Assembly: GCA_047631715.1 (NCBI GenBank)
Contig: JBLICC010000008.1
Coordinates: 1 to 23,886 of the forward strand
DNA from: Alteromonas naphthalenivorans
GTDB lineage: Bacteria > Babelota > Babeliae > Babelales > CAIQNR01
Length of the DNA stretch: 23,886 nucleotides
Direction of reading: 5' to 3'
Both the position numbers and the translations under genes were made by a program. The notes beneath the pieces were generated by a model. It made no database searches. It was given only the letters and a program-made list of their open reading frames with translations, and was not told where the DNA came from. Positions 1,991-22,627 of this stretch are shown piece after piece (positions within the stretch are counted from its first letter, which is position 1; each line of letters opens with the position of its first letter).

Positions 1991-2181
1991 AATAATAGGC
2001 ACCTTTGGTAATTTTTATCTTTATTCATAAGGGTTTTAGTGTAAAGACAGAGGGGTTTAAAGTCAAAAGGTGGTATATGGGTAAGCTTAAACCAAAACTT
2101 GAATTCTTATTAAAGACGGGTTACGTTCAAAATATATCTGTTTTAATTATTATAATAATCTACCTTAAAAGGAGAGTGATT

Positions 2182-2331
2182 ATGAAAAAGTTATTATTTG
2201 GTGGCTGTAATTGTGATGGTGACTGTAACTGTAGCGGCGGCGGATGTTCTGATGGAAGCTGCGGAAGCGATAAAAGCAGTAAAGGCGAAAAAACTGGTTC
2301 AGACCATAGCCAGCAGCAGGGTGGCGAATAA
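2182..2331 (+). CDS. Small Cys-rich peptide (49 aa, 6 Cys), metallothionein-like or precursor-like
   Basis: Strong RBS AAAAGGAGAG then ATG 2182. MKKLLFGGCNCDGDCNCSGGGCSDGSCGS...; stop 9 nt before lnt. Confidence 0.6.
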   Translation: MKKLLFGGCNCDGDCNCSGGGCSDGSCGSDKSSKGEKTGSDHSQQQGGE

Positions 2332-4273: not shown

Positions 4274-4825
4274 ATGAAGATCAAAAGTTTATTACTCACC
4301 CTGGTATTGAGCTCTCTTAGTACCACAAACCCCGTTAGAATCAACAGTAAAACCATCCCGAAATCAACCTATCAAACAATTACAGCTGGAACGGTAGATG
4401 CTAATTTTGGAGGAAAAAATGGTGCCCCTGCGGGTTCTTATAATCCCTCTATCGTTCTTGATAATGATGATGATATAATGACAATGCAGCTACAAACAGA
4501 TGGAAAGATACTTATTGCTGGAGCCGCTACTATTGATGGTGAAGTACAATGGTATGTGCAAAGACTTAATGTAAACGGCACATTGGATACAAGTTTTAAT
4601 GCTGGCAGTGTAGATGGCACTCCCGGTTCTTATAACCCTGATCTTGGGGGAGCTAGTGGAATTTATACAATGCAGCTACAAACAGATGGTAAGATACTTC
4701 TTTTTGGATACGCTACTATTGAAGCTGACTTAAAATGGTATGCAAGACGTTTATTAAACGACATTAATCCACTGACTCAACTCAAAAGTTCATACGGCAA
4801 TACAGGGTTTATTACATCGGCATAA
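4274..4825 (+). CDS. Exported delta-60 repeat (beta-propeller blade) protein with two repeats
   Basis: Signal peptide; two MQLQTDGKIL..G...WY..RL units linked by NGTLDTSF; RBS AAGGAG. Paralogue at 22301. Confidence 0.8.
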   Translation: MKIKSLLLTLVLSSLSTTNPVRINSKTIPKSTYQTITAGTVDANFGGKNGAPAGSYNPSIVLDNDDDIMTMQLQTDGKILIAGAATIDGEVQWYVQRLNVNGTLDTSFNAGSVDGTPGSYNPDLGGASGIYTMQLQTDGKILLFGYATIEADLKWYARRLLNDINPLTQLKSSYGNTGFITSA

Positions 4826-14306: not shown

Positions 14307-14347
14307 AAAAAAATTCCACCGCACTGACCGAAATCAATGCGATGGAA
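14307..14347 (-). terminator. Intrinsic terminator on the minus strand
   Basis: Minus RNA UUCCAUCGCAUUGA-U-UUCG-G-UCAGUGCGGUGGAA-U7. The stem needs G-U pairs available only on this strand. Confidence 0.8.
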
Positions 14348-14407
14348 AAAAGGAGAGTAGTAATGAAGCCTTATTAAAATGGTGTCTTCTCTAAGAGAAA
14401 AACACCT
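14307..14407 (-). ncRNA. Candidate antisense-acting small RNA (may extend 5' to ~14495)
   Basis: 5' hairpin (14381-14406), unpaired CUUCAUUACUACUCUCCUUUU segment, terminator. Upstream TTGACA at 14442-14437 and 14529-14524. Confidence 0.5.
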
Positions 14408-14500
14408 GAGTTAAGGTTGCCTAAAAATAACAAATATGTCAAATTTAAATATTTAAAAGAGACGCCTATTTAAGGTACTCTTACGCATAACTCTCTTCAT

Positions 14501-14529
14501 ACTGTAATGAATAAGTTTGCTATTGTCAA
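14501..14529 (-). promoter_or_regulatory. Sigma70-type promoter pointing into the recF-S8 intergenic region
   Basis: TTGACA (14529-14524), 17-nt spacer, TACAGT (14506-14501). Confidence 0.6.
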
Positions 14530-14572: not shown

Positions 14573-15646
14573 TCATATAGAAACTTTTAAGCTTGGTATA
14601 TTCTTTCGATTCAAAAAAATAAGCTCAGGACCCTGTTTAATAGGAGAAGCAAAGATAATTTGTACTTCTAAATCCAAACAGGCAGACATAAGTGTTTCTA
14701 GGTTTTCATTGTCAAAATCGGTCATAAAATCATCAATTAAGAGAAGAATGTGCTCTTTGCCGTGTAAAGCAATAAGATGGCTTACTTGAGCGATTTTAAG
14801 CAATAGAACAATAAGCTTCTGTTGGCCTCGAGAAGAAAAGAGTCGAGCCTTCTTTTTATTAAGGACAATCTCTATATCATCTAAATGAGCCCCAAAGAGC
14901 GATCGTCTATAACGTTTTTCTCTTTCGAATAAATGTGTGCTACGATCTACAAAAGCCTCAAAGCTCTCCCCTGCTTGAATCTCTTTCTTATTATACCTAA
15001 GCACATACTCTTTATCTGGCCAATAGCGCTCGCATAAACTCTGAACATGCTTAACCAAACCGGATAAATAGATTTCGCGATGTTTTTGAATGTCTTGAGA
15101 CAGTTCCCATACTTTACGAGTCCAAATCAGAAATTCATCCTGAGAAATAACATTACGCTGCAAAAGCGCATTTCTTTGATCTAATACCTGTTTAAACTGT
15201 TTGTATACTGTAGAAAGAGAACTTTCTAAAAGTATCAAAGCATGATCTAAAAATGATCGTCTTTTTTCTGGACTGCCTTTTACAAGCAAAAGATCATCTT
15301 CAGTAATCGTTACAACACGGTAATACTCTCTAAGTTCTTTATAAGAGGTGATAGGTTTCTTATCAACCTTAACTTGTTTTTTACCGCCGCTCGATCCAAC
15401 CGTTATAGAGTGATCTCTACAAGTTGCATTAATAAAAAAGTTTTCAGATTCAAAAGCAATTAAGTCTCGCGGAATATGTGTTCTAAATGATTTAAGATAA
15501 CAAGCATAATGAAGTGCTTCTAATAAAGATGTTTTTCCTGACCCATTCAACCCTTCTATCACCACAATGGGTGAATCAAGATCAAATGTCTGTGAGGAAA
15601 AACATCTAAAATTTTTTACCTGTAATCGCTGGATGCAAACTGTCAT
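14573..15646 (-). CDS. recF: DNA replication and repair protein RecF
   Basis: VKNFRC, Walker A GLNGSGKTS, KSFR, G.PEKRRSFLD, SSRGQQK, LLIDD; ATGA overlap with dnaN. Confidence 0.95.
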   Translation of the reverse strand: MTVCIQRLQVKNFRCFSSQTFDLDSPIVVIEGLNGSGKTSLLEALHYACYLKSFRTHIPRDLIAFESENFFINATCRDHSITVGSSGGKKQVKVDKKPITSYKELREYYRVVTITEDDLLLVKGSPEKRRSFLDHALILLESSLSTVYKQFKQVLDQRNALLQRNVISQDEFLIWTRKVWELSQDIQKHREIYLSGLVKHVQSLCERYWPDKEYVLRYNKKEIQAGESFEAFVDRSTHLFEREKRYRRSLFGAHLDDIEIVLNKKKARLFSSRGQQKLIVLLLKIAQVSHLIALHGKEHILLLIDDFMTDFDNENLETLMSACLDLEVQIIFASPIKQGPELIFLNRKNIPSLKVSI

Positions 15647-17464: not shown

Positions 17465-18372
17465 GATCGAGGATGTTTTTTATCATATATTTTACGTAAA
17501 TGCTCTGTTTCTACATGTGTATAAATCTGCACAGTGGTTAAGTTCTCGTGTCCCAACAGCATTTGTAGCGATCGTAAATTAGCGCCTTTCTTTAGCAAAT
17601 GTGTTGCTAATGAATGCCGTAACTGATGGGGAGAAAGCTCATGTTTAATACCTGCTCGTTGCCCCATATCTTTTAAATAGATCCAAAACATTTGTCGAGA
17701 CATTGCTTTTAACTTGCCACCATAAAATGTTGGGAACATATAATCTGTTTTAAGCGTTGTATTTTTTTTGGTTACTAACTGTGGATATACATTTTTAAGA
17801 TAGTTTTTTAAAAGTTCAGACATATGATGTGGTAGAGGAACCATGCGCTCTTTGCCCCCTTTTCCTGGTACTGTTACAAAGCCCGAAGAAAAGTCGACGC
17901 TTGATACCGTTACGTGTACCAATTCGCTAATACGCATGCCCGTTACATAGAGCAAGTATAACATGGTGCAATTACGTACTCCCGCATCAGAATCATCTTC
18001 TTTTGCTGCACTCAAAAGCATTTCTACTTCTTTTTCTTTTAAATGCTTGGGAAGCTTTTGTTCTAAACGTGGTGTTATGAGTTCTTCTGCACAGTTTTTA
18101 ATTTCATAGCGATCTTCTAGATATATATAAAATGCTTTAAGTGTAGATATTTTTCGGGCCGCACTTCTAGCTCCAATACCTTCTTTATTAAGATATTTTA
18201 AATATGCTTTAAGGTCTGTAGGTGTTACTTTTTTAAGTGCTAGTTTTTGAGTATCTAAAAAAACAGAAAATTGCTCAAGGTCTCTTCTATAAGCATCAAA
18301 GGTGTTTTTTGCTACTCGTTTTTCTGTTAATAAATAACTTTCAAACTTAGTAAAATAATCTTTGGTCTTCAT
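17461..18372 (-). CDS. xerD: Tyrosine recombinase, XerD-like
   Basis: NTFDAYRRDL, GMRISEL, GKGGKERMVP, SPHQLRHSLATHLL, QMLLGH, QIYTHV, HPR. Confidence 0.88.
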   Translation of the reverse strand: MKTKDYFTKFESYLLTEKRVAKNTFDAYRRDLEQFSVFLDTQKLALKKVTPTDLKAYLKYLNKEGIGARSAARKISTLKAFYIYLEDRYEIKNCAEELITPRLEQKLPKHLKEKEVEMLLSAAKEDDSDAGVRNCTMLYLLYVTGMRISELVHVTVSSVDFSSGFVTVPGKGGKERMVPLPHHMSELLKNYLKNVYPQLVTKKNTTLKTDYMFPTFYGGKLKAMSRQMFWIYLKDMGQRAGIKHELSPHQLRHSLATHLLKKGANLRSLQMLLGHENLTTVQIYTHVETEHLRKIYDKKHPRS

Positions 18373-18402
18373 TACTACTCTTTTTTTTAAATATAAAACT
18401 TC

Positions 18403-22178: not shown

Positions 22179-22281
22179 CCCTCGATACAATTTTAACTTC
22201 GTAAAAACCACTCGGGATGAACGTAATAACTTACTCTTTTAAATAAGACAGTTAACCTGCTCATCCCGAGTAGTTTTTGAG
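22179..22281. repeat. REP/MITE-like inverted doublet
   Basis: CCCTCGATACAA...CCACTCGGGATGA (22179-22220) and partial inverted TCATCCCGAGTAGTTTTT (22261-22278). Confidence 0.7.
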
Positions 22282-22300
22282 TTATAATGATAAAGATAGT

Positions 22301-22627
22301 ATGAAGATCAAAAATTTATTGCTCACTTTGGTACTGAGTACTCTCAGCACCACAAACCCCGTGCTTATAAACAGCTCAACCACACCGCAATGGACGTACC
22401 AAACAATAAAATCAAGTACGATCGATGCCAACTTTGGCGATGCTGGTAGTGACTTTTATACGAATACTGATGGTTATATAATTTATACCATGCAAATACA
22501 AACAGATGGCAAGATACTTATTGCTGGGTCTACCGGTACTACTAATTGGTATGTAGGAAGGTTATTAAATGATATCCATCCGCTTACTCAAATTACTGAA
22601 AACGGCAATACAGGGTTTATTGCATAG
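22301..22627 (+). CDS. Exported single delta-60 repeat protein, paralogue of 4274-4825
   Basis: MKIKNLLLTLVLSTLSTTNPV..., MQIQTDGKILIAG, LLNDIHPLTQ...GNTGFI. Confidence 0.75.
   Translation: MKIKNLLLTLVLSTLSTTNPVLINSSTTPQWTYQTIKSSTIDANFGDAGSDFYTNTDGYIIYTMQIQTDGKILIAGSTGTTNWYVGRLLNDIHPLTQITENGNTGFIA

Follow-up and report, generated by a model that had tools for sequence, protein, structure and literature searches.

The locus and its RNA gene

The window, that is, the whole stretch of 23,886 nucleotides analysed here, carries an RNA gene on its minus strand at 14307..14529. A minus-strand recF-like gene, which ends at 14573, lies on one side of it, and on the other begins a subtilase gene of the same strand. 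The element consists of a promoter, an optional 5' hairpin, a single-stranded seed, UUCAUUACUACUCUCCUU, and an intrinsic terminator (Table 1), and the seed reads as an anti-AUG, an anti-spacer and an anti-Shine-Dalgarno (anti-SD) segment. Over its full extent, AGGCUUCAUUACUACUCUCCUUUU, the unpaired region is made up of bases complementary to codons 2 and 3, the anti-AUG (CAU), the anti-spacer (UACUACU) and the anti-SD (CUCCUU).

Table 1. Positions in the window of the elements of the RNA gene, its upstream neighbour and two candidate target start regions
Feature	Positions	Strand	Basis	Remarks
P1, sigma70-type promoter TTGACA-17-TACAGT	14501..14529	-	promoter scan, 10/12	would yield an RNA of ~188 nt
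P2, proximal promoter TTGACA-17-CAACCT	14414..14442	-	sequence	would yield an RNA of ~100-107 nt
5' hairpin	14381..14406	-	folding	sequence and length variable; absent in some homologues, which start almost at the seed
A/U-rich linker	14372..14380	-	alignment	partly conserved, consensus UUAAnUU before AGGCU
Single-stranded seed	14348..14371	-		core 14351-14368 found phylum-wide
Intrinsic terminator stem-loop	14314..14347	-	compensatory changes in homologues	15 pairs
U7 tail of the terminator	14307..14313	-	sequence (T7)	
recF-like gene	14573..15646	-	Pfam SMC_N/AAA_23; synteny	upstream neighbour kept in relatives
Start region of Xer-type tyrosine recombinase (xerD), ATG 18372-18370	18367..18390	-		best predicted target, not conserved
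Start region of 49-aa Cys/Gly-rich ORF	2167..2187	+		weaker candidate target, rank 22 of 745

The initial annotation had described most of these elements, and they were recovered on the minus strand as described: the distal promoter, both hairpins with the run of T7, and the UUCG-capped terminator, although its tetraloop is closed by a U-G pair and the loop sequence varies among homologues. The second TTGACA, at 14442, is also present, but the -10 element that follows it (CAACCT) is degenerate in this genome and P2 falls below the threshold of the promoter scan. In 108 homologues, TTGAC[AT] positions peak chiefly 60-100 nt before the core, where P2 lies, and P1 falls within a second cluster at 120-180 nt. 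That both stems pair better on the minus strand agrees with the folding energies, which are -22.3 against -13.0 kcal/mol on the plus strand for the terminator and -11.8 against -9.9 kcal/mol for the 5' hairpin; the 114-nt region as a whole folds at -36.7 kcal/mol (z -6.5) on the minus strand and at -29.4 kcal/mol on the plus strand. The segment between the hairpins, held to be unpaired, is indeed predicted to be open, with a probability of 0.93-1.0 across 15 core bases in the 107-nt form.

The window holds no tRNA or tmRNA, and a DnaA-box scan of it gave four loose matches, of which the closest is some 760 nt away from the RNA. The reverse complement of the fixed seed, on the plus strand at 14356-14364, spells exactly the tandem stops UAG UAA UGA with an AUG inside, so that the seed also fits overlapping stop-start junctions (UAAUG, AUGA); this may be a coincidence of an AGU repeat.

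Conservation across Babelota

Babelota (Dependentiae/TM6) are a little-studied phylum of parasites of protists. With at most one mismatch, the 18-nt core of the seed occurs in 230 of 261 Babelota genomes and in 181 of the 189 high-quality ones, and the reversed core pattern occurs in none of the 261. A DNA search of 40 relatives gave strong matches only to the last 75 nt (query 202-275, the seed and terminator). The named carriers are records of Ca. Dependentiae, Babeliales, TM6, Babelota and Vermiphilus, and many others bear vague submitter labels. Loci carrying the core number at least 120; of the 120 listed, 21 have no terminator, many of these being ordinary gene starts, mostly from other phyla.

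Seventeen core columns are invariant in a set of 95 copies, with the caveat that the copies were found by that very core. This set had passed a strict terminator filter, among whose 58 rejects about 37 are true copies, and a better filter gave the set of 108. Of the 95 copies, 80 were selected and aligned; the terminator stem is paired in 99.5% of 960 cells, compared with 25-52% in slid controls, and 11 of its 12 pairs show two-sided changes. The RNA strand gives the better fold for 78 of the 95 copies and the worse one for 15. A promoter scoring at least 9/12 lies upstream of 84 of the 108 copies, as against 2 on the opposite strand, 5 in antisense and 6.1 in shuffled sequence. The -10 elements of homologues end 8-83 nt before the core, which makes the 5' hairpin optional and the shortest forms about 55 nt long.

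The position of the gene is also kept: in 59 of 67 loci examined, a count that includes a few genomes twice, the end of recF lies 120-491 nt upstream, while the remainder comprise two loci with a recF match further off, three with too little DNA and three with none. Several families double the anti-SD, and in f12 the copies form tandem arrays, two or three to an array. Three tandem copies stand in one genome (L037, G026:C10:13031-13433). Elsewhere (L029, G015:C60:4057-4113) a decayed second copy stands off the main locus, with several changes in the seed and the terminator kept. Two families have no core, f16 (0 of 7 genomes) and f8 (0 of 3); in the three genomes of these families in which the locus was found there is a diverged syntenic copy that keeps the promoter, the anti-SD and the terminator, the f16 copy having CAU with a different spacer and the f8 copies having no CAU.

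Searches of known families were negative: at the gathering thresholds of Rfam 15 there was no match for the window, three named homologues or two phage loci, and in E-value mode the best hit (E 0.29) was to an unrelated eukaryotic family. Hfq (PF17209) was not found in 61 genomes, while the control search was positive in 5 of 14 reference genomes. The literature searched gave no description of this RNA or of Babelota phages, though large RNA-motif screens could list it.

A plus-strand ribosome-binding site with a four-codon frame (MKPY) had been put forward as an alternative explanation. In homologues this frame varies from 2 to 46 codons and its silent positions are fixed, so that it is not the selected feature. 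Conservation of the seed in relatives, covariation and the polarity of promoter and terminator, which are the comparative tests of existence, all give a positive answer; judged on the sequence, core conservation, terminator covariation and promoter polarity place the element as a whole beyond chance, and there is little room for doubt that the RNA gene is real. It is a previously uncatalogued small-RNA family, a new one among the regulators directed against ribosome-binding sites.

xerD and other start regions in this genome

The initial annotation had drawn attention to an exact 15-nt complement over the xerD start codon. This match is present, since 14354-14368 and the reverse complement of 18367-18381 both read AGAGTAGTAATGAAG, and it is the longest that the segment has elsewhere in the 845-kb genome. 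When starts were ranked by duplex energy against 745 start regions taken from our own gene calls, xerD came first (-25.8 kcal/mol; median -10.1), and 24 of the 745 reached -20 kcal/mol or better. The other start regions that had been named, those of the Cys-rich ORF, the gene at 4274 and ruvC, do show complementarity, but rank just 22, 61 and 42. Among the labels used in this ranking, those of tig, uppS, GAPDH, ftsA and rpoB are our presumed identifications from the protein sequences, whereas ZapB and DUF5679 were assigned by search.

The caution that a 15-mer match is not rare was well founded: 10 of 210 permutations of the spacer give an exact match of at least 15 nt to some start window of the genome, and the xerD 15-mer, taken alone, is borderline with respect to chance. 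By three measures, the real spacer comes 8th, 19th and 71st among 210 permutations, column-shuffle tests within this genome were mostly not significant for an excess of matched starts, and one of its 37 GGAG-N7-ATG starts has 6 of 7 spacer matches (0.12 expected, p 0.12). The matched-start excess within this genome alone is weak or absent.

Although xerD lies a few kb upstream of the RNA in most relatives, the match does not follow it. Only 6 of 38 orthologues reach -20 kcal/mol or better and 32 are weaker, with a median of about -12.5, even though the best among nearby start codons was used, which flatters the result; the orthologue in the same genus gives -14.1 kcal/mol. xerD was thus rejected as a conserved target, and the control of chromosome dimer resolution, suggested earlier as the role of the RNA, is not supported, the complement being lost already within the genus; as a conserved role, xerD is largely refuted. 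It may be a lineage-specific target in this genome, and the chance that it is a true local one is put at slightly under even.

Some neighbouring observations concern the genes themselves. The 49-aa ORF (2182-2331, plus strand) is rich in Cys, Gly and Ser, with a metallothionein-like composition and no Pfam match. The plus-strand genes at 4274-4825 and 22277-22627 are paralogues with signal peptides; the first has DUF5122 repeats, and the second is shorter and resembles a truncated copy of it. A second Xer recombinase match (G000:C46:4138-5004, minus strand) contains one internal TAA, which may mean a frameshift, a broken gene or an assembly error, and in another genome a seed complement with one mismatch (G018:C7:44760-44772) stands just before a second Xer recombinase match, at a putative start.

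Matched starts across the phylum

The enrichment of the complement at start codons, weak in a single genome, appears when the phylum is taken as a whole. At least 39 sites other than the RNA lie within one mismatch of the 18-nt complement in the 261 Babelota genomes, five of them exact, and 32 of the 39 open ORFs of at least 100 aa, mostly unrelated. The extra core matches were taken from genomes with two or more matches, and ten genomes were left out (G130, G136, G138, G140, G144, G150, G151, G153, G158 and G256), so that the counts are lower bounds. Permuting the seven spacer bases gave 2, 6 and 15 sites in the same genomes (0, 0 and 1 exact); with three controls only and a spread of 2-15, the excess is about 2.6- to 20-fold. 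Some sites belong to orthologues or paralogues, namely three secretins in one family and two further pairs. AGGAG-N7-ATGAAG sites whose spacer lacks the seed's G at position 5 form a pool of 601.

The matched genes encode ankyrin, WD40 and TPR proteins, a ubiquitin hydrolase, an M17 peptidase and the three orthologous secretins, and many of the 31 proteins scanned have no Pfam family. By a crude filter, 30 of 32 matched products begin with a hydrophobic stretch, as do 19 of 20 products of control AGGAG-N7-ATGAAG starts; in this genome the figures are 50 of 63 for strong-SD Met-Lys starts and 324 of 685 for genes overall. A specificity for secreted proteins beyond the class of strong SD and Met-Lys was thus rejected: the exported-protein class is favoured via the SD and AUG-AAG, not via the spacer. 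Two further sources of a spacer bias were discarded. The 16S 3' end, present in four of the five genomes looked at, is the ordinary GGAUCACCUCCUUU in all four, and an ordinary tail does not explain the spacer. A general preference of viral ribosome-binding sites for this spacer was rejected on viral contigs at large, where 38 non-hairpin matches compare with 48 and more than 118 for the controls.

There is no single orthologous target common to the phylum, since the 20 sites of an exact-complement search and the 39 near-perfect ones belong mostly to unrelated genes. In families f7 and f20 the seed has a match at the secretin start (L384, L385, L394, L765, L766), with -30 to -34.5 kcal/mol in three f7 genomes, -19.8 in a fourth and -29.4 in f20; the secretin reaches at most -20.2 in the 10 other genomes and was rejected as a conserved target. 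The secretin query had no match in family f1, this genome included.

Another lead is a histone-like gene rich in Lys and Arg, which ranks 29 among this genome's starts. Its start is of the GGGAGAG type in 10 of 13 readable f1 genomes, at -17.3 to -25.1 kcal/mol, values within the top 9% of this genome's starts, and is weaker in the other three and in both genomes outside f1. The lead is post hoc, being one of three genes followed (with xerD and the secretin), and a strong SD could be part of the cause of the match. The protein (L761:54-401, G000:C38:4254-4604; 116 aa, more than 50% Lys/Arg) is found in 19 of 41 genomes; it has no Pfam match, and we take it to be reminiscent of the chlamydial histone-like proteins.

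Copies in a tailed-phage family

In viral contigs, a hairpin directly follows 35 of 73 exact matches to the 17-mer; with wider flanks, 47 viral loci divide into 33 with a hairpin and T-rich tail, 5 with a hairpin and no tail, and 9 gene starts on the opposite strand. All 30 clustered hairpin loci share the genes of one tailed-phage group (N4-gp56-type capsid, portal and large terminase), in which the RNA copies stand at many different positions and in both orientations, with stems unlike that of the host. Some of them follow TTGAAT/TTGACA-16/17-TATATT/TAGTAT ending 9 nt before the core, others come after a stop codon, and some have the host-type doubled anti-SD. One phage (L652) has the seed duplicated head to tail before a single terminator, and in some phages small signal-peptide ORFs adjoin the RNA copy.

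In a set chosen by the capsid (86 loci, 80 viral and 6 from assemblies; partial genomes), the exact core with a terminator occurs in three loci, one of them on the query's own contig, and the RNA model with E up to 0.1 gives 14 matches in 13 loci. Seed-like sites with a terminator number 8, against 0-2 for 12 permuted seeds, and 3 of 57 phage GGAG-N7-ATG starts have the exact spacer (0.05 expected, p 0.0002). The family is uncultured and abundant, with genomes of 35-40 kb and 2553 capsid homologues (L615-L661, L670-L755), and its capsid gene is often broken up into two or three ORFs by the insertion of a further ORF or of an HNH gene.

The capsid appears at 82-95% identity in 3 of the 261 Babelota assemblies, on contigs of 35.5 kb, 39 kb or short length; being phage-sized or short, these contigs are read as co-binned, and integration is not shown. 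None of the members of the phage cluster has a host name, and cultured phages match the capsid distantly (23-27% for the 15 listed of 27 records, all below 60%). The case for Babelota as the host is suggestive only; probably the family does infect them.

Proposed mechanism and rival explanations

The central proposal of the initial annotation, an undescribed, multi-target small RNA of the minus strand with an anti-SD and anti-AUG seed, is upheld by conservation, covariation, polarity and the excess at start codons. Its sequence signals, an own promoter and an intrinsic terminator with no conserved ORF, place it in the class of trans-acting small RNAs, as do the conserved single-stranded seed and the excess of complementarity to mRNA starts, the latter weak in a single genome. 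It would be an RNA of 55-190 nt, ancestral to the phylum, which the conserved signals suggest is transcribed from its own sigma70-type promoter or promoters behind recF to its own terminator. The unpaired seed would pair continuously with the SD, spacer and AUG of a target and keep the 30S subunit off, and its 15-20 contiguous pairs would make an Hfq-type chaperone unnecessary. By analogy, it probably acts as a multi-target, Hfq-independent repressor of translation initiation, like the streptococcal csRNAs in action and belonging to a new family; that many targets are repressed is likewise considered probable.

The statistical excess suggests that the seed stays fixed and that genes join the regulon as their start regions drift towards AGGAGAGUAGUAAUGAAG, with no single phylum-wide target. 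Since strong-SD Met-Lys starts belong mostly to signal-peptide proteins in Babelota, the best-matched mRNAs are mostly those of exported proteins. xerD would be a local addition in this genome and the histone-like gene a candidate common to the family. A likely job, put forward as speculation, would be to keep a set of stage-specific proteins from being translated throughout one phase of the infection cycle, and tailed phages with the seed on terminators of their own and seed-matched starts of late genes may plug into this circuit.

The invariance of the seed, far above that of any target found, poses a difficulty: about 39 near-perfect sites in 261 genomes are well under one per genome, which seems too little to fix 17 bases across a phylum, and the excess matches inside this genome are few. 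The seed could instead be held by one conserved partner other than mRNA starts, either a protein that reads the pyrimidine strand or the ribosome, an account that we consider unlikely. It would make the RNA a general brake on initiation, mimicking the 16S anti-SD together with the initiator anticodon, or else a protein scaffold, with the matched starts as a secondary matter. It would suit the doubling of the anti-SD as CUCCUUUCUCCUUUU in some lineages, the retention in f8 of the anti-SD part only, and the best 16S duplex (L756-L759), which is formed some 400 nt short of the 3' end and at -21.6 kcal/mol equals, in an uncontrolled comparison, the tenth-best mRNA start. However, the 16S region matched by the seed belongs to a helix and is conserved among bacteria at large, and the surplus of starts matching the spacer, both in the phylum and in phages, means that pairing with mRNA is selected. 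Pairing with mRNA starts is the likely main action of the RNA.

Granting such pairing, the RNA might chiefly regulate xerD and hence chromosome dimer resolution. The first rank of xerD, the proportion of strong orthologues (6 of 38, as against 24 of 745 starts here) and the nearness of the gene in most relatives favour this reading; the weakness of the other orthologues, the same-genus one among them, the mismatch here of the CC that would pair with the SD, and the permuted seeds that equal the match by exact-match length make it most improbable that xerD control is the purpose of the RNA. It is just as improbable that pairing stabilises or stores mRNAs, or sets the moment at which they pass to the secretion machinery, rather than simply repressing them. 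Perfect complements in phage virion genes would be odd if pairing could only do harm, and a single csRNA is able to act positively (PMC4507080). Against this, covering the SD and AUG normally blocks initiation, as is established, and phages might equally delay their late genes by repression. Least credible of all is that the element is a mere terminator of the xerD-dnaN-recF transcript beside the plus-strand ribosome-binding site and MKPY, the other matches being chance or copies of that site. It is true that the hairpin comes after recF and on its strand, and a few matched sites (L358, L406, L245) resemble the 5' arm of the stem, as copies would; but a terminator does not need the fixed 17-mer, the promoters face the minus strand by 84 to 2, the small frame varies in length with its silent positions fixed, and in the tandem copies with promoters of their own, as in the phage copies, which stand at unrelated positions, the stem changes but the seed is retained.

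Meaning

Returning to repression by start-site pairing, it is unusual for a regulatory seed of 17 nt to be fixed throughout a phylum when the genes that it targets come and go. Such a seed offers a handle on how parasites with reduced genomes and few transcription regulators time a large secretome, and it serves as a phylum marker and gives a clue as to which host the abundant, uncultured phages infect. The C. destructans genome paper gives ffs (4.5S), rnpB (RNase P) and ssrA (tmRNA) as the only other non-coding RNAs and signal peptides in 44% of coding sequences (PMC6561590), and in the literature searched no regulatory RNA is listed for Babelota. A bolder proposal, offered tentatively and with rather less than an even chance, is that a fixed master antisense RNA acts as a programmable off-switch for the phylum, which genes join by the spelling of their ribosome-binding sites, and that a phage family has repeatedly acquired both mimics of it and matching starts of virion genes. 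If true, fast-turning effector repertoires could follow the timing of the infection cycle with no need of new regulators, the phage family would be the missing phage group of Babelota, and it would be the first phage to share a host small-RNA seed both as regulator and as target.

Comparison with known systems

Unlike the Hfq-dependent small RNAs, the present family occurs in genomes in which Hfq was not found (61 searched). IhtA of Chlamydia (PMC4355289) is an ecological analogue: its bacterium too is obligately intracellular, and the small RNA acts by blocking a start codon. The target of IhtA is a histone-like developmental protein, and a histone-like gene is a candidate target in f1. IhtA is described as having three stem-loops and as pairing through a loop of 6-7 nt around the AUG, not with the SD. 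The Babelota RNA differs in its 15-20 unpaired bases, which reach from the SD to codon 2 and form a linker between two stems, and shows no homology to IhtA.

The C/U-rich anti-SD small RNAs of Gram-positive bacteria, with LhrC of Listeria (PMC4132741), RsaE/RoxS and RNAIII as examples, share the pairing of single-stranded CU-rich motifs to the SD, with little or no dependence on Hfq, and the multicopy arrays. They use short UCCC motifs. The Babelota RNA differs from them in having the anti-AUG in a fixed register, and it gave no match in Rfam.

The nearest parallel is offered by the CiaR-dependent csRNAs of streptococci (PMC3091779, PMC4507080). They too have an unpaired anti-SD and anti-AUG (CAU), and their open sequence lies between a 5' stem-loop and the terminator, or before a lone terminator (PMC3091779), which is the arrangement found here. 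They share as well the plurality of targets, the tandem sibling copies and a host without Hfq, and one csRNA copy is known from a mobile element, plasmid pST0 (PMC3091779, PMC4507080). Nevertheless, there is no sequence or Rfam match between the two. A CiaR box (NTTAAG-N5-TTTAAG), which in the csRNAs takes the place of the -35, is missing, its two-mismatch matches being at chance level (6 against 4.5 expected) and none of them on the minus strand at either promoter, where homologues have TTGAC[AT]. In place of the nonamer [A/C]UCCUAAA[A/C], the alignment of the Babelota RNAs shows CUCCUUUUU, and the named carriers are records of Dependentiae, Babeliales and TM6 rather than streptococci bearing CiaRH. 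Finally, whereas the csRNAs are diverse, with 40 types, the Babelota seed is fixed across its phylum, including the bases that pair with the spacer, and is carried by phages.
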